Positions 4,090-45,290 of a stretch of 64,000 nucleotides of DNA are shown here, in pieces. Each line of letters begins with the position of its first letter. The first letter of the stretch is position 1. The translations under genes and the position numbers were made by a program. The notes beneath the pieces are model-generated. The model did not search any database. It was not told where the DNA came from and saw only the letters and a list, made by a program, of their open reading frames with translations. The DNA is from Methanobacteriota archaeon (GTDB lineage: Archaea > Halobacteriota > Bog-38 > Methanoflorentales > Methanoflorentaceae): contig CAVRAO010000011.1 in NCBI GenBank assembly GCA_963719035.1, positions 1 to 64,000 of the forward strand. The letters run 5' to 3'.

Positions 4090-6894
4090 TTATGACGCTA
4101 GTATACCCGATTGTACTTGGCGTCTTAACTTTCTTCTTACGAAATATTTCCGTATTTCATCGGCAATTAATAAAGTCGGAATCAAGGCGATCAAAAAAGC
4201 CCAATCGATTGGCCCTAACGGACCCATATTGAATACGTTTTGGAGAAACGGAACATAAGTGAGCGCGACTACAGCAACACATTCTGCAAGGATCCCCCAC
4301 AATAGAAGCCTATTACTGAAAAAGCCCACTTTGAATATCGACTCCATGTTTGTGCGTTGGGCGAAACCATTGCCGATTTGAGTTGTTACGATTGCGTTGT
4401 GTGTCATCGTGGTTGCTAGTACGTAAACTAGCCCTGTGGCTGCCATTTCCATGCCCGGTCGCCATCCGTTTATAAGGTACATGAAATAGAATGCCGACAT
4501 AGCCGCTGCCGCTTGAATCGGACCTAAAAAGAGGTATGCCTTAGATAATGTTCTACGGTTCAACAGCCGTTCGTGCCGGTCGCGCGGTTTTCTTTGCATG
4601 ACATCCGGTTCGGGAGCTTCTGCCCCCAAAGCCAGTGCTGGTAACATATCTGTTCCCAAATCAATCGCCAAAATCTGCATAATGGTCAGCGGCAGGGGAA
4701 TCTTAAATATTACGAACAGAATAAACGGAACGAGTTCGGGAAAATTACTCGTGAATATATAGACTACGAATCGCCTGATATTATCATAGACAGCCCGGCC
4801 TTCTTCGATTGCGTTAACGATGCTGGCAAAGTTGTCGTCAGTCAAAATCATTTCGGCTGCTTCCTTGGCGACATCAGTTCCTGTTATCCCCATGGCCACG
4901 CCTATGTCGGCCATCTTAAGAGCAGGGGCGTCGTTGACGCCGTCCCCAGTCATAGCTACGACATGGCCCATTTCCTTAAGGGCTTTGGCTATCTTCATCT
5001 TGTGTTCCGGAGACACTCGGGCAAATAGGATATCCGGCTTGCCGAGCTCTTTCTCCAAAGCTTCGATACTCATTTCATCCAGTTCGGCGCCGGTGATGAT
5101 CCTTACGTTATCGCCTTTTACAATTCCGATCCTTCGGGCAATAGATTCAGCAGTCAATCCATAGTCACCGGTGACCATGACGATTTTTATCCCCGCCGTA
5201 GCGCATGCTTCGACCGCCGTGGCCACTTCCTCGCGCGGTGGATCCATCATGGCAATCAACCCCGCGAAGATCAGGTTTTTCTCAACAGTTTCAGCCGTAT
5301 AATTTTTTTCTTCCCGGGCTATGTTCCGATAGGCCATAGCTAACACGCGCAATCCGTTACGCGCGAATTCGTCGTTCTTTTCCATGATGGCTATTCGCTG
5401 CTTGTCGTCCAACTGCTTTATATCGCCCGCACGCCAAATCGAGTCGCATAAGCCTAGGACTTCTTTGGGGGCGCCTTTGATAAACGCAACCTTATTGTTC
5501 TTTTCAATGTGAATAGTCGACATCATTTTACGCACAGAATCGAACGGCAACGCATAAACACGCTTGGATCGCGACAACTCATCATCGTAGTCAAAGCCGG
5601 CTTTTCTGGCGGTCGTCAGGAGAGCACCTTCAGTCGGGTCGCCCAGGATAGTCCATTTATCAACGTCGTCACCTGGCGGGAGAAGCCTAGCATTGTTGCA
5701 GAATGATGCGATCTTTACCAGGATTTCCAGTGATCGCAGCTCGTTTGCATCAAGTTCTATTTCATTAAGCAGGTAGCCGCCCGCGGGATTGTAGCCGACG
5801 CCTGTCGCATCGTACGTATTACCGTCGAACCATAGTTCCTTTACCGTCATCTCGTTCTGAGTTAAAGTCCCTGTTTTATCGGTGCATATAACTGTTGTAC
5901 TTCCCAGCGTTTCGACCGAGGAGAGCTTCTTAATAAGGGCTCCGCGCTTGGCCATACGCTGGACACCCATGGCCAACCCGAGCGACACAGTCGGCAACAA
6001 GCCCTCGGGCATCAAAGCGACGATAATACCGATAGCGAACAAGAATCCCGTGTTCAGCGGCATGCCTGCGACAAAGGAACCTAAGAAAAAAAACGTCAAT
6101 CCTATGGAAATAGCCAGAATAGCGACCACTTTCGTGACGTTCTTCATCTCTTTTTGTAGCGGACTTTCCTCTTCCCTTACGTCCTGGGTCATCTTGGCGA
6201 TCTTGCCAAACTCGGTCTTCATCCCCGTAGCGAAGATGACTGCCTTACCCGATCCGTAAGCGACGCTTGTGCCAGCAAAGACCAGGTTCGGCATTTCCGT
6301 GCGCGTCAGCGTGGGGTTATCGACTGCGGCAGAGGTTTTTCGCACCGGTTCAGACTCGCCTGTAAGGGTCGCGTTGTTGGTTCTTAGGTCGAACTCCTCA
6401 TACAGTCTGGCGTCGGCCGATATACTGTCGCCTTCCTGGAGGAAGAGCACGTCGCCTGGAACTAGTTGGGATGCTTCAACCTCAATTGTGTCGCCGTTTC
6501 GGACAATTCTCGCTCGCCTCGGCATTAGTTTCTTTAACGCTTCGGTGGCTTTTTCCGCTTTATACTCCTGCCAGAAGCTGAAGATGGCGTTGATTAATAT
6601 GACGGCAAATATTGCCCAACCAAGTTCTGGAAAACCCGCCAGGAAGGCCATGCCTCCGCCGATCCATAGCAGAATAGCGAACAAGTGGTAAAAGTTCTCA
6701 AGGAACTTGAAAATGAGCGGCCGTTGCTTAAGTGTAATAAGCTCATTAGCTCCGAAAGATGCTAAGCGACTTTGTGCCTCTGCGGTGGACAAGCCGCGTT
6801 CGCTGCTTGCAAGGGCTGTAAGAACATCATCCTTAGCCAGAGATGGTATTGATTGAATAACTTTGTCTTCCAATAAAAATCCGTCGTGATTCAT
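4090..6894 (-). CDS. Cation-transporting P-type ATPase, type IIC (Na+/K+, H+/K+)-like
   Basis: TGES, PEGL, DKTGTLT and TGDGVND motifs. TM5 TSNFPE and TM6 IDLGTD resemble the Na,K-ATPase TSNIPE and IDLGTD. Confidence 0.9.
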   Translation of the reverse strand: MNHDGFLLEDKVIQSIPSLAKDDVLTALASSERGLSTAEAQSRLASFGANELITLKQRPLIFKFLENFYHLFAILLWIGGGMAFLAGFPELGWAIFAVILINAIFSFWQEYKAEKATEALKKLMPRRARIVRNGDTIEVEASQLVPGDVLFLQEGDSISADARLYEEFDLRTNNATLTGESEPVRKTSAAVDNPTLTRTEMPNLVFAGTSVAYGSGKAVIFATGMKTEFGKIAKMTQDVREEESPLQKEMKNVTKVVAILAISIGLTFFFLGSFVAGMPLNTGFLFAIGIIVALMPEGLLPTVSLGLAMGVQRMAKRGALIKKLSSVETLGSTTVICTDKTGTLTQNEMTVKELWFDGNTYDATGVGYNPAGGYLLNEIELDANELRSLEILVKIASFCNNARLLPPGDDVDKWTILGDPTEGALLTTARKAGFDYDDELSRSKRVYALPFDSVRKMMSTIHIEKNNKVAFIKGAPKEVLGLCDSIWRAGDIKQLDDKQRIAIMEKNDEFARNGLRVLAMAYRNIAREEKNYTAETVEKNLIFAGLIAMMDPPREEVATAVEACATAGIKIVMVTGDYGLTAESIARRIGIVKGDNVRIITGAELDEMSIEALEKELGKPDILFARVSPEHKMKIAKALKEMGHVVAMTGDGVNDAPALKMADIGVAMGITGTDVAKEAAEMILTDDNFASIVNAIEEGRAVYDNIRRFVVYIFTSNFPELVPFILFVIFKIPLPLTIMQILAIDLGTDMLPALALGAEAPEPDVMQRKPRDRHERLLNRRTLSKAYLFLGPIQAAAAMSAFYFMYLINGWRPGMEMAATGLVYVLATTMTHNAIVTTQIGNGFAQRTNMESIFKVGFFSNRLLLWGILAECVAVVALTYVPFLQNVFNMGPLGPIDWAFLIALIPTLLIADEIRKYFVRRKLRRQVQSGILAS

Positions 6895-35545: not shown

Positions 35546-35898
35546 TTAAATCACCAAAAAAGTAATAAAAAGGAAGTTATAAAAAGCTATCGAATCGTAG
35601 CACAAAGTGTATCTTGTTTGATAAAAACGTAATAATATATTAGACTAAAAATCGGGTCTACACGAATACGCTATGTTTGTGGAATCTCAAAAGATGAAGA
35701 GAGCAAGTCTAAGGTCATTTTAATAGACCCAGTTAAGCTAGCGTCAATTGATTAAAAGAAGTAATTAACTCAGTCCGTTCACTTTAGCACAGCAATACTC
35801 AATAGTAACGACCACCGCTCACCTCATTGATTTCTTTGAACGCTATAAGCGATAGAGTTCATTGCCATAGGATTAAATATGGGTGTTGGGCTTAGTCA

Positions 35899-36110: not shown

Positions 36111-36224
36111 CACGTCTTCCACCTTCTCCAACAAACGTACGTGGTTACAAACCAGTCGGCTGAATTTGTCTAAAAAGCTTACACTAGACACAATCACTTT
36201 GAAGCTTAGATCTTTTTTAACAAA

Positions 36225-36274
36225 TCTATTAGAAGTCTAATAATTGCTTGTTAGATTTCCATTAGACTTAAATA
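36225..36274 (+). promoter_or_regulatory. 11-bp-phased TCTAWTAGA array abutting TATA box TTAAATA
   Basis: 9-mers at 36225, 36236, 36247 and 36258; AAGTCTAAT-N19-ATTAGACTT at 36233-36269. Confidence 0.65.
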
Positions 36275-36294
36275 CAAAAAGAACAATTATGATG

Positions 36295-36415
36295 CGGCAA
36301 GTATCCCTCCTAAAGAGATCACCGATTGGCCAAACGTAATTGGTGCTTCGCGTGCGTGCTGGGATCCTCCTTTAATCCCAGCACTTGGAGCGATATGTGT
36401 CTCATAATCTTTTTT
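36295..36415 (+). ncRNA. Putative sRNA A with anti-SD loop hairpin
   Basis: Upstream TATA, perfect 10-bp stem GTGCTGGGAT/ATCCCAGCAC (36356-36384) with loop CCTCCTTTA, second hairpin 36320-36345, T6 at 36410-36415, no ORF in the track. Confidence 0.5.
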
Positions 36416-36632
36416 GAACACTTACTTACCCCTTGATAATATGCCTTCGCGCAGGACAGATAGTTGAAATAAGGACATTATCGCGCAAAGACCTGTTACA
36501 GCCCGCTTCCCTCTCTTCGATGAGTTTAAATCCCGTAGCGAACACTTGAATCACGATTAAAAAAATTACAGTTGGGGACCGTAACTTCAGAATTAGACAT
36601 TTCTATACGCTAGATGGAGGGCACATCATTTG

Positions 36633-37445
36633 ATGGACAAATGGGATCCCGAGGACTATTCTAAACATTCATATTCACAATATGCGTTCGCCTTGGGACT
36701 AGTAGGAAGGCTCGGGCTTCTTGGTAACGAGCGCATTTTGGATATTGGTTGTGGTGATGGGAAGATAACCGCTAAGCTTGCTGCATGTGTGCCAAACGGG
36801 TCTGTCGTTGGCATTGATTCCTCTGCTGACATGATCGCCTTTGCTAAAAACATGTTCCCGCCGTCAGAACATCCAAACCTCCTATTTCGCTGTGGGGACG
36901 CCGCGAAGCTCAAGTTTTGCCAGGAATTCGACCTTGTTGTGTCCTTTGCCTGTCTCCACTGGACTGATGACCTAGTGACGGTATTTCAAGGTATTAAACA
37001 GAGTCTCGCGCCAGGCGGTCGGTTTGCGGCTCAGCTCATGGTGAAGCGACTTACCACAGAAAAGAGAAGCGGGTCTCCGTTGCACCAAGCACGAAGAGAG
37101 GTTATAGATCGCCCCGCTTGGAGAGCGTATTTTCAGGGTTTCGAGAGGCAAGGGACGGTTTACCGTGCCGATGAATACGAAAGGATTCTGCGCGAAGCCG
37201 AGTTCGTCCCGCGCCGAATCGAGTTCGTTACGGAAGATGTGACACACCCCGGAACAGACGCACTAAAGGGGTGCGCACGAGCCACATGGCACCGGTATAC
37301 TAACCGAATTCCGGTCGAGCGCCGCCCCGCCTTTCTTGATGAGGTCGTGCAGCGCTTTATTGAGTTGCACCCTCCTGATCGCAACGGGCAGATACATGTT
37401 CGTGGGAATATATTAGAGGTCGAAGCCACGATAGCAAACAAATGA
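36633..37445 (+). CDS. Class I SAM methyltransferase (trans-aconitate methyltransferase-like)
   Basis: WDPEDY, ILDIGCGDGKIT, GIDSSADMI, FDLVVSFACLHW. Confidence 0.88.
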   Translation: MDKWDPEDYSKHSYSQYAFALGLVGRLGLLGNERILDIGCGDGKITAKLAACVPNGSVVGIDSSADMIAFAKNMFPPSEHPNLLFRCGDAAKLKFCQEFDLVVSFACLHWTDDLVTVFQGIKQSLAPGGRFAAQLMVKRLTTEKRSGSPLHQARREVIDRPAWRAYFQGFERQGTVYRADEYERILREAEFVPRRIEFVTEDVTHPGTDALKGCARATWHRYTNRIPVERRPAFLDEVVQRFIELHPPDRNGQIHVRGNILEVEATIANK

Positions 37446-37531
37446 CTGTTTGCCGCCCTTCTGTTATATGAAGAATTTTGGTGCTATAGCGCTATGATAA
37501 GTGGTTGACGATCAAACCTTCTATGTTGCTT

Positions 37532-38344
37532 TTAGAGCTTACTTACGGTTTTACTGATCAGGACTGAGGTGTTGTTTACCTTGCCTGTCGGTAGCACCCT
37601 CCCCGACTCGTGAAACCCAGCCAAATCCTCTGCGGTCACCGTCGGATACAGGATCGCCCGCATGCCACTGTAAGTCCGATAAAGGATTTTAGTTTCCGTC
37701 GAGACAACACTGCGGACATTCGTAAAGACTCGATTTTTTGGCTCTGCAGACGCCCCTACAATAACCCCATCATACTTCAAATCCGCCAATGCAGATTCAT
37801 CGCCACATACCACTTCAATCGACGAGCTAAACCCTAGTTTATCGAGAACCTGTCTTGAAAGGTCCGCAATTTGTGGGACAAGTTCGAGGCTGATCCCTTC
37901 CACTCCATAGTGCGTATTGAGCAGCATTGACGTTAAGGGCACTGATCCCCCGCCAATGAACACCACCCGATCCCCTGCTGAGAAGGCTGCTAGCAGTACC
38001 TCGTTGCCAACTAAGGTTAGGTAGCGGTTGTAGTAATGGAACGATTCAACCTCTGCCCACGGGTCATCAGCTATCAGTATATCACGAGCGTTCTGAGTTT
38101 CAAGACGAGTGCCCACTGCAACGTAGAACGCTCGAATGACCTTTAAAGCCTCACTAATTCGTTCATCGTTAAGGATAAGCTGCGCCGATACAAAGTTGAT
38201 CTCCATGTCTTGCGCAATTACTTCGATCGCATCAAGCAGCGGGATGATCTTATCTAACGGCTGGCGTTCAAGATCGTCACCGTCATACTTGCTCAACTCA
38301 TCGGCTATTGCAGAGATTTTGACATAGTAATCGTTACGTTTCAT
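37532..38344 (-). CDS. Nicotianamine synthase-like protein (copy 1)
   Basis: F.YY.RY..L..NE, VFIGGGSVPLT, AEPK.RVF, YRTYSGMRAILY, LPTGKVNNTSV as in methanogen NAS-like proteins. Confidence 0.85.
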   Translation of the reverse strand: MKRNDYYVKISAIADELSKYDGDDLERQPLDKIIPLLDAIEVIAQDMEINFVSAQLILNDERISEALKVIRAFYVAVGTRLETQNARDILIADDPWAEVESFHYYNRYLTLVGNEVLLAAFSAGDRVVFIGGGSVPLTSMLLNTHYGVEGISLELVPQIADLSRQVLDKLGFSSSIEVVCGDESALADLKYDGVIVGASAEPKNRVFTNVRSVVSTETKILYRTYSGMRAILYPTVTAEDLAGFHESGRVLPTGKVNNTSVLISKTVSKL

Positions 38345-38742
38345 AGAATCTTCGGCAACAGTTTTCACAAGTCGCGGTTCAGATACAACCGCTCGGTATG
38401 TAGTGTCGACTTTGCTGATAACAGACATTAAGGTTACGTTTCAACCTCTAGTGCTCACCGTGTCCATCAGACGATTCGCCACACAATAATCGTTCCTCGC
38501 GATGTCTTGACGACGGAAAACATATTTGACGTAAATGGTGTCCGCACAACATTGGTTGACGGTAGGCCGGGAGTTGCATTGTTCCTTTGATGTCTGCTGA
38601 GTGATGGCAAATCTTGAGGAGATCCTGAGGGTACCTCTAGGGCCCTCTCAAGCGTATCCGTTAGTCTTGCCATTTTTAATCGAGTTAGGCGGCGTGCGAA
38701 CGCTCGGACAGTGGTTAGAAATCAAAAAGCAGTCGCCTGAGT

Positions 38743-38852
38743 AAAAAAACGAAACAATTTCGTGGACGGATATACTTTGGTTCATAAACGGACGTGCTGG
38801 GAAAAAGAGGTGAAACGCCCAGCACATATATTCCCTACTATAGACAGAGGCT
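38743..38852 (-). ncRNA. Putative sRNA B with anti-SD loop hairpin (paralog of sRNA A)
   Basis: Minus-strand TATA TTAAGTA (38880-38874), stem GTGCTGGG/CCCAGCAC (38794-38825) with loop CGTTTCACCTCTTTTT, T7 at 38749-38743. Confidence 0.5.
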
Positions 38853-38873
38853 AACATAACTCAATGAACCTTA

Positions 38874-38917
38874 TACTTAAGTCTATTGGAATATTTTTAG
38901 AATTCTTATAGACTTAA
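38874..38917 (-). promoter_or_regulatory. 11-bp-phased TCTAWTAGA-like array abutting TATA box
   Basis: 9-mers at 38882, 38893 and 38904; TTAAGTCTAT...ATAGACTTAA inverted repeat with the same 37-bp core span as the other two arrays. Confidence 0.65.
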
Positions 38918-39200
38918 CTGTATAGAAACCGTGGTGAGCAAAGCAACTTCATACTCATTTGCGTTCTATGTGTTAAGTGGTTCCCATAAGTTGGATGGAG
39001 TGCTAAGATATGTGGACATCAAACAAACTGGAAGTAAGTGTAGTGAGCATAGCCGTACCCCTGGCTATGTGTAGCGCTGGGTGCAACTCACAATCATCAT
39101 CAAGAGAACGAACGAGACGACCAGTAGTATCGTTGAGACTAATCAATCGCCTGGTGACCATAATGGGAGGAATCCAGTAATAGAAAAACAAGCGGCAAGT

Positions 39201-39428
39201 TTAGGAGTCGTAGAGGGACTGAATATCGTCGACTATCGGCGGACGTGGACTTAATGGGCTTATAATCAAACTTCCTTCACTAATCGCAAGTTCTACGTCG
39301 AGTCGTTCCGGCATTTCCGACCCATCACTTAACCGGAACGGAAATCGCTCATCCATCAAAATCGTCATCGGTATGTCCAAAAACGCGCTGTTCTTGGATC
39401 GCCTTATGGTACTTATCGTGCCAATCAT
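39201..39428 (-). CDS. Small AbrB/MazE-like protein, paralog B
   Basis: RRSKNSAFLDIPMTILMDERFPF...VELAISEGSLIISP aligns with paralog A; both end in DD...YD. Confidence 0.65.
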   Translation of the reverse strand: MIGTISTIRRSKNSAFLDIPMTILMDERFPFRLSDGSEMPERLDVELAISEGSLIISPLSPRPPIVDDIQSLYDS

Positions 39429-39451
39429 AAGAAATGAGGTACACTGGATGT

Positions 39452-39493
39452 TATTTAAGTCTAATGGTTGTCTAATAGAATTCTATTAGGCTT
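39452..39493 (-). promoter_or_regulatory. 11-bp-phased TCTAWTAGA array abutting the TATA box of paralog B
   Basis: 9-mers at 39460, 39471 and 39482; AAGTCTAAT-N19-ATTAGGCTT at 39457-39493; TTAAATA about 25 nt upstream of ATG 39428. Confidence 0.7.
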
Positions 39494-39649
39494 TAAGGTC
39501 TGCCCTTTCACATTCGGGGTGACGTCGAACAGTTCTGACGCGATTCTCTGTTTGGAACGATAATCAGATTTAATTCAGATATTGCTTGAAGCACGTAGGT
39601 CATATAGTGGAAAAACACAACTGCAACTAGGTATTTGATTGTACGCTCT

Positions 39650-40761: not shown

Positions 40762-41601
40762 ATGAGCTGTTACGAGTATTGGGCTAAGATTTCCACGATA
40801 GCGGATGCGTTGGGCGTTCATGATATCAATGCCATCAAGAGAAAGGCCTTGGCCGAAATCGTGCCTCTCCTCGATGCGATAGAAATCATTGCACACGATA
40901 CAACCATTGAGTTTGAAGAGGCGCAGCACATTCTGGATAACGAACGAATGAACGAAGCTCTGAAGATTATTAGAGAGTTCTATGTCGCTATCGGGGAGCG
41001 TTTGGAGAAACAAATTGCTTACGAGATACTAGATGCAGAAGAACCGAGGATAGCGCTTGAGTCGTACCACTACTATGAACGGTATCCGATCTTGGTAGGG
41101 AACGAGGTACTGCTAGCAGCCTTCTCAGCAGGGGATCGGGTGGTGTTCATTGGTGGGGGGCCGCTGCCTTTAACACCGATTCTACTACACAAGTGCTATG
41201 GTATTGATGGGATAAGCGTTGAGATAGTGCCTGAGATAGCTGCGCTCTCTGAGCGGGTACTCGGTAAATTAGGTTACGGCTCTGAGATCAAGGTGGTTTG
41301 TGGGGACGAAACAGTATTGTCGGATTTGAAGTGTGATGCTGTTATTGTAGCGGCGCTAGCAGAGCCCAAAAAGAGAGTTTTCAGGAATATCAAACGTTTA
41401 GTTGCCGCAGAAACAAAAATTCTTTATCGGACGTATACCGGTATGCGGGCGATCCTATATGCGCCAGTGGTGAGCACAGACCTAACGGGGTTTCAAGAGG
41501 TAGCGAGGGTACTACCGACAGGTAAGGTAAACAACACTTCGGTTCTAATAAGAAAGAATCGAAAGTTTGCACCAAGCCAAGAAAAGCGTTTTAATCATTA
41601 A
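40762..41601 (+). CDS. Nicotianamine synthase-like protein (copy 2)
   Basis: Same motifs as copy 1: VFIGGGPLPLT, AALAEPKKRVF, YRTYTGMRAILY, VNNTSV. Confidence 0.87.
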   Translation: MSCYEYWAKISTIADALGVHDINAIKRKALAEIVPLLDAIEIIAHDTTIEFEEAQHILDNERMNEALKIIREFYVAIGERLEKQIAYEILDAEEPRIALESYHYYERYPILVGNEVLLAAFSAGDRVVFIGGGPLPLTPILLHKCYGIDGISVEIVPEIAALSERVLGKLGYGSEIKVVCGDETVLSDLKCDAVIVAALAEPKKRVFRNIKRLVAAETKILYRTYTGMRAILYAPVVSTDLTGFQEVARVLPTGKVNNTSVLIRKNRKFAPSQEKRFNH

Positions 41602-42224
41602 GCTCGCGATCGATCACCAGCGCCGAATGACAGTTGCCACTTATTAACGTCATCGCTCCCATAATGAGCCTTTAATGCTTCTTTTACCCCCCATCTAACA
41701 AGTTTCGCTACCCTGCTTCCAAACGGAGTGGCCAGTCCGCTGTATAAAATCGAGTCACCCTTGCTGCTATTTTCATACGCAACGATAACCGCATCGCTCG
41801 TCGTGCCTGTGAATTGCAATCCCTTGTCGCTCAGGGCGCGCGTCTTTGCTTCCGTGGCGGTAATTATCGTCCCTGCGATCGCCCCCTCGCTCAACGTTTC
41901 TGAGGATATGACAATTATGTTAATGGTGCCAAACGACGACGGATTCGTGAGTCCTGCAGTCACAAAAACCGTCACGCACGCACCGCTCAGAATCCGTACG
42001 TTCTGCATCTCAACTGCTGTGAGAAGCGCGAGATACCCCCCTTCGAGCGTCATTGATGCTGCAACGTCATCAATGTAGCTCTTCGGATCGTTGTGAGAAA
42101 AATCGGGGGAAACCTGGATGTTAAGGATATTTTTTACCGCTCTTCTGCCGCCGTCGACACCACTGCTCAGGGCTTCAAAGTTACCTTTCAGCACTAAGAC
42201 TCGGTCTAATATCTCATATTCCAC
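41598..42224 (-). CDS. cbiZ: Adenosylcobinamide amidohydrolase (copy 1)
   Basis: LSSGVDGG, LLTAV.M, VTAGLTN, GTINII, TATEAK, TGTTSDA. Confidence 0.85.
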   Translation of the reverse strand: MEYEILDRVLVLKGNFEALSSGVDGGRRAVKNILNIQVSPDFSHNDPKSYIDDVAASMTLEGGYLALLTAVEMQNVRILSGACVTVFVTAGLTNPSSFGTINIIVISSETLSEGAIAGTIITATEAKTRALSDKGLQFTGTTSDAVIVAYENSSKGDSILYSGLATPFGSRVAKLVRWGVKEALKAHYGSDDVNKWQLSFGAGDRSRA

Positions 42225-44684: not shown

Positions 44685-45290
44685 TCAACGACGTTGTGCG
44701 GCCGAGGTCTCTTCGCCGTTGCTCCCATAATGAGCTTTCAGCGCGTCTTTTACTCCTAGTCTGACGAGTTTTGTGACTCTTTTGCCAAATGGGGTAGCAG
44801 GCCCGCTGTACAGAATATGCCCATCATCACCGCAGTCTTCATATGCGATCACCACTGCGTCAGTTGTTGTCCCGGTGAAATTGAATCCGTAATCGAGAAG
44901 GGCGCGCGCTTTCGCTTCGGTGGCCGTAATTATCGCCCCTGCGATCGCCCCCTCGCTGAACGTTTCTGAGGATATGACAATTATGTTGATGGTGCCAAAC
45001 GACGACGGATTCGTGAGTCCTGCAGTCACAAAAACCGTCACGCACGCATCGCTGAGAATCCGTACGTTCTGCATCTCAACTGCTGTGAGAAGCGCGAGAT
45101 AGCCCCCTTCGAGCGTCATTGATGCTGCAACGTCATCAATGTAGCTCTTCGGATCGTTGTGAGAAAAATCGGGGGAAACCTGGATGTTAAGGATATTTTT
45201 TACCGCTCTTCTGCCGCCGTCGACACCACTGCTCAGAGCTTCAAAGTTACCTTTCAGCACTAAGACTCGGTCTAATATCTCATATTCCAC
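44685..45290 (-). CDS. cbiZ: Adenosylcobinamide amidohydrolase (copy 2)
   Basis: Same motifs as copy 1; last gene of the btuFCD operon. Confidence 0.87.
   Translation of the reverse strand: MEYEILDRVLVLKGNFEALSSGVDGGRRAVKNILNIQVSPDFSHNDPKSYIDDVAASMTLEGGYLALLTAVEMQNVRILSDACVTVFVTAGLTNPSSFGTINIIVISSETFSEGAIAGAIITATEAKARALLDYGFNFTGTTTDAVVIAYEDCGDDGHILYSGPATPFGKRVTKLVRLGVKDALKAHYGSNGEETSAAQRR

Follow-up and report, generated by a model that had tools for sequence, protein, structure and literature searches.

Two short hairpins with the same stem and different loops lie on opposite strands of a 64,000-nucleotide stretch of a Methanobacteriota archaeon genome (positions 1 to 64,000 of contig CAVRAO010000011.1; hereafter the window), and the question raised by this locus is whether they belong to genes for small RNAs (sRNAs), to the leaders of neighbouring messages or to DNA sites recognized by proteins. 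The initial annotation had described them as hairpins with a conserved stem and a variable loop that mimics the 3′ end of 16S rRNA. We tentatively favour, at something less than even confidence, two independent sRNA genes of ~100-120 nt, A and B, whose loops would be complementary to ribosome-binding sites (RBSs) and act in trans.

Two inverted units with one stem and different loops

Hairpin A (36356-36384, + strand) reads GTGCTGGGAT / CCTCCTTTA / ATCCCAGCAC, with a 10-bp stem and a 9-nt loop; its loop is given as CCUCCUUUA when the hairpin is treated as the helix P2 of a larger element. Hairpin B (38794-38825) reads GTGCTGGG / AAAAAGAGGTGAAACG / CCCAGCAC in + strand letters and presents the loop CGTTTCACCTCTTTTT above an 8-bp stem on the - strand. 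The 8-bp stem GUGCUGGG/CCCAGCAC is common to both, and reading the two sequences bears out the earlier statement that the stems are identical while the loops differ. The pattern GTGCTGGG-N4-30-CCCAGCAC is matched twice in the window, by hairpins A and B, and in none of 100 dinucleotide shuffles, while in the whole genome (2,190,301 bases in 13 contigs) it is matched at these two hairpins only. Chance does not account for the two hairpins, and the genome has no others like them. Units A (+) and B (-) form an inverted pair of paralogs that face each other across two genes, in keeping with the opposite strands first proposed. A gene for an S-adenosylmethionine (SAM)-dependent methyltransferase (36630-37445, +; likely ATG at 36633, Shine-Dalgarno (SD) sequence GGAGGG at 36616-36621) lies downstream of unit A, and one for a nicotianamine-synthase-like (NAS) protein (37532-38428, -) lies downstream of unit B.

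Both hairpins are preceded by a shared block, composed of the motif CCAWTAGACTTAAR, the final bases of which form a TATA-like box, and of upstream TCTAWTAG-type repeats, with 17 positions invariant across five aligned instances. Exact copies of the motif number three in the genome, all inside 3.2 kb. In the predicted promoter/operator of unit A (36222-36275, +) the motif reads CCATTAGACTTAAA (36259-36272), with the TATA-like box CTTAAATAC at 36267-36275, and in that of unit B (38868-38925, -) it reads CCAATAGACTTAAG (38889-38876), with the TATA-like box TTAAGTAT. The third and last copy (39467-39454) forms part of promoter/operator C (39445-39495, -), which precedes an open reading frame (ORF) of 75 codons (39201-39428). 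The block points toward the hairpin in both units, + for A and - for B, which backs the strands assigned earlier from the TATA boxes. Since operator B contains a second TAGACTTAA on the + strand (38909-38917), block B may be bidirectional; the left half of the promoter block, read on the opposite strand, also resembles a second promoter, and bidirectionality is conceivable here as well. Four one-mismatch copies of the motif elsewhere in the genome were rejected as further promoters, the upstream repeats being absent, as was an exact copy in genome G005, which has an unrelated ORF downstream.

The customary spacing between an archaeal TATA box and the transcription start places the predicted starts of RNA A and RNA B near 36298 and 38850, respectively. 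Candidate archaeal terminators are provided by a T6 run (36410-36415, +), which starts 26 nt past hairpin A (a gap of 25 nt), and a T7 run (38743-38749, -), which starts 45 nt past hairpin B (a gap of 44 nt), and with these ends RNA A would be ~118 nt and RNA B ~105 nt in length. RNA A is predicted to fold into a closed three-helix shape (-44.3 kcal/mol; z -4.0), which none of 200 shuffles equalled. It includes P1, a small bulged hairpin (GGC-CAA-AC...GGU-GC; 36327-36350, +) that five genomes retain in their R1-type elements and the G-U pairs of which form on the RNA-sense strand only. The second CCCUCCU that had been noted in RNA A is present (36305-36311, +; CCCTCCT in the DNA), and the minimum-energy fold closes the RNA by pairing this CCCUCCU with GGAG (36388-36391), so that in this model it is sequestered and not exposed. 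In RNA B, from which P1 is absent, the hairpin is the sole marked fold feature. The predicted folds of both RNAs leave the loop unpaired. Several ideas weighed by eye were dropped, namely a kink-turn (K-turn) in P1, the alignment of which lacks tandem G-A pairs past the bulge, an H/ACA or C/D box RNA, a small ORF within the RNAs, and an H-type pseudoknot between the A loop and the 3′ GGAG.

Relatives of the hairpin and changes in its stem

The class was sampled with 24 genomes of one family and two genera, many of them incomplete, and the hairpin element is present in six of these. The exact stem occurs in four of the 61 genomes searched, namely the source genome (G000), G008, G011 and G022. 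R1-type elements combine the hairpin with P1 (GGCCARAC...GGUGC), located 5-9 nt upstream, and a covariance model of P1 and P2 yields 71-85 bits in five of the 24 genomes (G000 at unit A, G008, G011, G017 and G022) and 12-22 bits on the reverse strand. Two weak matches to this model were discarded, one in the source genome (G000:C12:252413-252495; 20.3 bits), which is apparently coding sequence, and one in G007 (17.5 bits), which was treated as chance. A pattern scan of metagenomes returned at least 135 matches in at least 121 loci, of which at least nine have the 3′ arm and at least seven were judged homologous. No new loop types were found among the matches listed, the homologs being near-identical to known types.

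In G008, G017 and G022 the element has a divergent cbiM gene on one side and, downstream, a CbiZ gene or a FecCD fragment, and nikR adjoins it. G008 and G022 share 82-97% identity from cbiM through the element, with homology lost ~60 nt past it and different genes downstream (a FecCD fragment versus a CbiZ gene). As the element is kept while the downstream gene changes, it is not tied to one downstream gene. When loci L006 and L007 are compared (1580-1650), ~60-85 nt past the hairpin are conserved between G008 and G022, including GAAGCTYGCACTGGAAGAATGGTC, which is partly repeated farther downstream in G022; the RNA unit in these genomes may span ~180 nt and contain further structure. The NikR-cbiM loci of G006 and G010, which are without the element, have a different NikR context and are hence uninformative for comparison.

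The element of G011 lies downstream of amt-glnB, past a small hydrophobic ORF recognized by eye, and a hairpin with a T-run comes next. This ORF (locus L008, oriented 1372-1506) has 44 codons by-eye translated and a strong AGGAGGTGA SD sequence, and the R1 element starts directly past its stop codon. In G021, the NAS locus (L016) contains the promoter block twice (806-860 and 4776-4835), and downstream of each copy lies a hairpin, its stem a longer variant: h1 (TTTCAAAAGTGCTAtGGG...CCCTAGCACTTTTGAAA) and h2 (ACATTTCAAAAGTACTGGGG...CCCCAGTACTTTTGAAATGT), the latter with an FmdE-domain gene downstream. G000 and G021 alike have a gene pair flanked by two inverted hairpin copies. The palindromic block (TCTAWTAG repeats and CCAWTAGACTTAARTA) is restricted to the NAS-like loci of these two genomes. 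By eye, the stretch between h1 and the NAS gene of L016 shows several small ORFs like that of G011, coding for membrane proteins and preceded by strong SD sequences. The record of this locus (DASPRZ010000117.1, equivalent to G021:C114) is titled 'Candidatus Acidiferrales bacterium', yet it holds an archaeal-type NAS locus, the promoter block and the hairpins, and its promoter-motif spacing of 3972 nt is that of G021:C114, assigned to the archaeal class; a labelling or binning error probably explains the bacterial title.

Across the nine hairpin variants 96.3% of the cells pair, and three pairs have changed on both sides (four cells). Three compensatory pairs were equalled by four of 500 shuffles, while the cell count, percentage paired and covariation score were equalled by none of 500, and slid controls pair at 26-49%. 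The one-sided changes within the R1 type give G-U pairs when read on the modelled strand. The hairpins h1 and h2 of G021 differ in their substitutions, and in both of them a change in one arm is matched in the other, which argues for a hairpin over a protein operator.

Loops, the 16S rRNA tail and competing explanations

The 16S rRNA of the source organism terminates in ...CTGCGGCTGGATCACCTCCT (...CUGCGGCUGGAUCACCUCCU when written out more fully), and the archaeal tail quoted at the outset, GGAUCACCUCC, is correct for this genome. Local alignment of each RNA-sense loop to the 12-nt 16S tail gave p-values of 0.020 for A (AUCCUCCUUUAAU), 0.006 for B (CGUUUCACCUCUUUUU), 0.096 for G008 (AUUUGACCUCGGUU), 0.80 for G022 and G017 (AUUUGACCGCGGUU), 0.004 for G011 and locus L051 (AAUCAUCUCCCA), 0.024 for G021 h1 (UUACCCUCCUGUUUU) and 0.81 for G021 h2 (UUCGCACGGGUUC). 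Fisher combination over the seven sense loops yields a p-value of about 4e-5 to 2e-4, and the antisense loops show no signal against the tail (p >= 0.30). CCUC or CUCC occurs in five of the seven distinct RNA-sense loops and in 5.5-7.9% of random genomic windows of 12-16 nt (binomial p ~2e-4; ~4e-3 counting either strand; ~1e-3 to 1e-2 merging G008 and G022). Whole elements aligned to the last 60 nt of the 16S rRNA gave p-values of 0.05 (A), 0.04 (G011), 0.20 (B) and >0.6 (the other four), and local alignment of the 5′ arm plus loop to these 60 nt, or of P1 to the AAGGUAGCC region, did not reach significance. The loops carry an anti-SD-like word of 6-9 nt, and the resemblance to the rRNA end extends no further; of the proposed mimicry, the enrichment stands on the sense strand, itself assigned independently from the promoter block and P1, while similarity beyond this length is not significant. 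The conservation of CCUC among homologous loops, the lack of which was to speak against the proposal, is likewise partial, with two of the seven lacking it. On the opposite strand, the GGAGG/GAGGTG of the loops is not followed by a start codon, as had been noted (checked by eye). The two SD classes, previously described as used throughout the window, are real, but their use is moderate: 19 of 90 crude ORFs of >=120 amino acids, a list that includes spurious frames, have GGAGG (14) or GAGGTG/AGGTGA (5) in the 20 nt ahead of their best-scoring start. That RNAs A and B might mask these two classes genome-wide, GGAGG and GAGGUG, as first suggested, is a hypothesis.

A segment of the NAS leader, AGAGGUUGAAACG (38437-38449, -), ends 8 nt ahead of the ATG and can base-pair with the B loop. 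Pairing with this segment, AGAGGU(U)GAAACG (38449-38437), involves 6 + 6 bp around one bulged U, and RNAduplex assigns the B loop and the NAS start region -18.4 kcal/mol, placing this region 58th among 3036 crude candidates (mean -10.5, sd 3.4). Exact loop complements of at least 10 nt number 49 (A) and 138 (B) genome-wide, including self-matches, and lie mostly off start codons; 12-mers occur among them in about the number roughly estimated for chance, and neither loop gains a specific target from this search.

In the sRNA mechanism that we favour, each unit would be transcribed from its locus-specific, operator-bearing archaeal promoter, under a regulator and a signal presumed to act there, and would end at the oligo-T run. 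The functional module would be the very stable GC-rich hairpin GUGCUGGG/CCCAGCAC, keeping a C/U-rich loop single-stranded. The loop letters would be free to vary, usually retaining 6-9 nt of the 16S tail (CCUCCU, UCACCUC or AUCAUCUCC), and through these 16S-tail-identical nucleotides the loop should be able to pair with purine-rich RBSs and block initiation. The most plausible target of RNA B would be the adjacent NAS mRNA, while RNA A and its R1-type relatives, located beside cbiM, cbiZ and btuC-like genes, may act on other metal or corrinoid mRNAs. Consistent with independent sRNAs are the T-runs between hairpin and gene and, by eye, TATA-like CGATTAAAAA boxes past the T-runs.

A number of observations weigh against this interpretation. 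Transcription and strand of RNAs A and B are predicted from the promoter block and T-runs. RNA B as a whole folds no better than its shuffles (z -0.74; 44/200). In the R1 type (six distinct sequences) 88% of the cells pair and compensatory pairs number zero, and all of the compensatory stem changes derive from the two hairpins of one genome, G021. Two of the seven loops are without CCUC or CUCC (those of G022 and G017 have ACCGC, and that of G021 h2 has neither), and the lineages are kin, so that the loop p-values are overstated. The B-NAS pairing, at rank 58 of 3036, is suggestive and not unique, and the NAS start codon is uncertain, relatives aligning from residue 23 onward only. The A loop ranks its best neighbour, the methyltransferase start region, 344 of 3036. 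No extended target specific to it emerged, and its best exact complements, of 11-12 nt, occur in about the number expected by chance.

Alternatively, the hairpins may act in cis, as parts of long 5′ untranslated regions in which the oligo-T runs serve as attenuators and, upon read-through, the loop pairs with the RBS of its own message. Six of the seven units point at a same-strand gene 200-370 nt downstream, all metal- or corrinoid-related: unit A precedes the methyltransferase and unit B the NAS gene, and relatives lie ahead of CbiZ, BtuC-like and FmdE-like genes. Furthermore, the B loop is complementary to the same-strand NAS leader, and the 5′ CCCUCCU of RNA A matches the methyltransferase SD sequence. 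However, oligo-T runs terminate archaeal transcription, as would be expected of the T6 and T7 runs that separate each hairpin from its gene, and a TATA-like CGATTAAAAA box can be seen by eye between each T-run and its gene. The element of G008 and G022 stays on the cbiM side as the downstream gene changes, that of G011 is followed by a hairpin and T-run with no downstream gene, and complementarity to the unit's own start region beyond GGAGG was found for the B loop only. We consider a cis-acting leader unlikely, although it deserves consideration. We would attach a similarly low likelihood to an RNA hairpin whose function does not involve SD pairing (protein-binding, processing, stabilising or 3′-end-forming, for example), in which the C/U-rich loop is incidental or recognized by a protein. 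Five of the ten stem pairs are invariant across the nine variants, and the stem is nearly invariant within the R1 type; this conservation exceeds that expected for structure alone and suggests sequence-specific recognition. Two loops without CCUC, the position of the G011 element where a small ORF ends, and the stems of G021, 17-20 bp in length and with ACUUUUG at their ends, terminator-like on both strands, are also in line with such a role. It leaves unexplained, however, the strand-specific 16S-tail-like enrichment in otherwise unrelated loops. The A and B stems have no abutting U-run, the T-runs starting 26 and 45 nt past the stem, and an intrinsic terminator was rejected, only the G021 hairpins ending in ACUUUUG; nor is P1 a K-turn.

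A DNA-level palindrome, whether an operator bound by a regulator such as NikR, a dimer or tetramer that would leave the loop as an uncontacted spacer, or else a cruciform or a site of recombination at the edges of the methyltransferase-NAS cassette, appears improbable. PMC545781 lists predicted NikR signals of the form GTGTTAC-[N13/14]-GTAACAC and GTATGAT-[N13/14]-ATCATAC, inverted repeats of 27-28 bp, and the GTG....-spacer-....CAC hairpin resembles these in its conserved half-sites, variable centre and location beside nikR and cbi(nik)MNQO. A NikR gene lies 4 kb from the hairpins in the source genome and adjoins the element in three others, and inverted copies flank a gene pair in two genomes. 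Unlike the fixed 27-28 bp of these NikR signals, the elements measure 28, 29, 30, 30, 31, 32 and 34 bp in total, with spacers of 12-16 nt between the 8-nt arms, and NikR_C is found in 23 of the 24 class genomes as against six, many of the 24 being incomplete, for the hairpin. The mirrored arm changes of G021 are those expected of a hairpin, while the strand-specific P1 G-U pairs and the loop motif lack a DNA-level explanation. A separate palindrome over the cbiM TATA box (GATAGTT-N8-AACTATC) makes a better candidate than the hairpin for the site at which NikR would control the cbiMN operon; it is seen as GATAGTT-ATAAAAAA-CTATC in G022, G008 and G017 (L006, L007 and L010, ~1385-1420) and is partly kept at 35560-35600 of the window. 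Hairpins of REP or IS200/IS605-end type were rejected, as there are two copies in 2.19 Mb and no transposase domain among 22 neighbouring ORFs. A riboswitch (cobalamin or NiCo) was also rejected, there being no Rfam match and the conserved parts being stems with a variable loop. A further idea, to which we give little credence, is that these hairpins serve as regulated decoys of the 16S rRNA 3′ tail, sponging entire SD classes of mRNA (GGAGG-type versus GAGGUG-type) or titrating a tail-recognising factor, in which a fixed scaffold would show interchangeable anti-SD versions, switched on by a metal-responsive repressor. If true, this would constitute a global, ribosome-mimicking layer of archaeal translational control.

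For the trans-acting sRNAs that we favour, the closest known kind is that of archaeal sRNAs of intergenic origin that carry an anti-RBS loop. Loop 2 of Methanosarcina mazei sRNA154 (target glnA2) and sRNA41 (target polycistronic ACDS mRNAs) mask RBSs (review PMC5867862). As described there, these are also euryarchaeal intergenic elements of ~100 nt, with a stable stem-loop, an RBS-complementary loop, condition-specific promoter control and proposed RBS masking, the last here predicted from sequence. No sequence or Rfam relationship links the two, and, unlike in sRNA154 and sRNA41, the stem is conserved, with a loop that paralogs and relatives exchange, the candidate target genes lie between two inverted paralogs, and the context is one of nickel/cobalt/corrinoid and NAS-like genes and not of nitrogen.

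The bacterial RsaE/RoxS and RNAIII hairpins are sRNAs whose C-rich loops pair with SD sequences, and sibling copies occur. They resemble units A and B in presenting single-stranded C/U-rich motifs in loops aimed at G-rich RBSs, and differ in belonging to another domain of life, with no homology and no Hfq-type context on the archaeal side. Rfam 15 gave no match at the gathering score in the window, and a search of five loci with E-values up to 5 gave two chance-level matches only (E 1.6 and 3.6). The literature on anti-SD mimic sRNAs, surveyed in outline, and on archaeal NAS small RNAs provided no account of the element. As such, the hairpin family is best read as new relative to Rfam and of an already known kind, the archaeal anti-RBS sRNA.

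If the RNAs are real, they would represent an undescribed sRNA family in an uncultured methanogen-related class, with the unusual design of a sequence-conserved scaffold hairpin and an exchangeable anti-RBS loop, encoded as inverted paralogs around likely NAS-like and methyltransferase targets near NikR and CbiMNQO. This would tie riboregulation to nickel, cobalt and metallophore homeostasis in archaea, in which, to our knowledge, few sRNA targets are known, and the B loop and NAS leader offer a compact, testable case. If the RNAs are unexpressed, what is left is a curious conserved palindrome.

Neighbouring genes

Genes in the neighbourhood encode NikR, CbiM/N/Q/O, a second NAS-like protein and two CbiZ proteins. 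Two paralogous proteins of 75 amino acids (41% identity; E 6e-17), P0003 (35883-36110, +) and P0002 (39201-39428, -), are encoded at the outer sides of the two units, the latter behind promoter C. As the P0002 ATG lies at about the predicted transcription start of promoter C, its mRNA is probably leaderless. Neither protein has a Pfam or NCBIfam match, and P0003 belongs to no known family; a search with it returned 25 proteins including the query, named at most 'hypothetical protein' and mostly not at all. The idea of P0003 as an AbrB/MazE-like DNA binder found no match in Pfam (E<=10) or NCBIfam (E<=1). Its AlphaFold model has a predicted local distance difference test (pLDDT) value of 68.8, and a Foldseek comparison against the PDB gave nothing at E<=0.001. 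Within the class the family is found in G000 and G021 only, the two genomes bearing the promoter block, and on the basis of this co-occurrence P0002 and P0003 are candidate regulators that may bind the shared operator, perhaps representing a new type of small transcription regulator. With the shared operator, the two proteins would add a new local regulator to the system.

Possible traces of duplication can be observed around the units. A direct repeat links 38981-39003 to 36600-36622 (74% over 23 nt), and the methyltransferase start region (TTTCTATACGCTAGATGGAGGGC) reappears ahead of a 56-amino-acid ORF (39010-39180), which suggests that the repeat is a remnant of the duplication that gave rise to units A and B. 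The two CbiZ paralogs (41598-42224 and 44685-45290, both -) have identical 18-nt upstream regions (TTACTTGAAGGTGAACAA), and the second NAS-like gene (40762-41601) is a paralog of that downstream of unit B. The region as a whole looks like a duplicated metal/corrinoid island.

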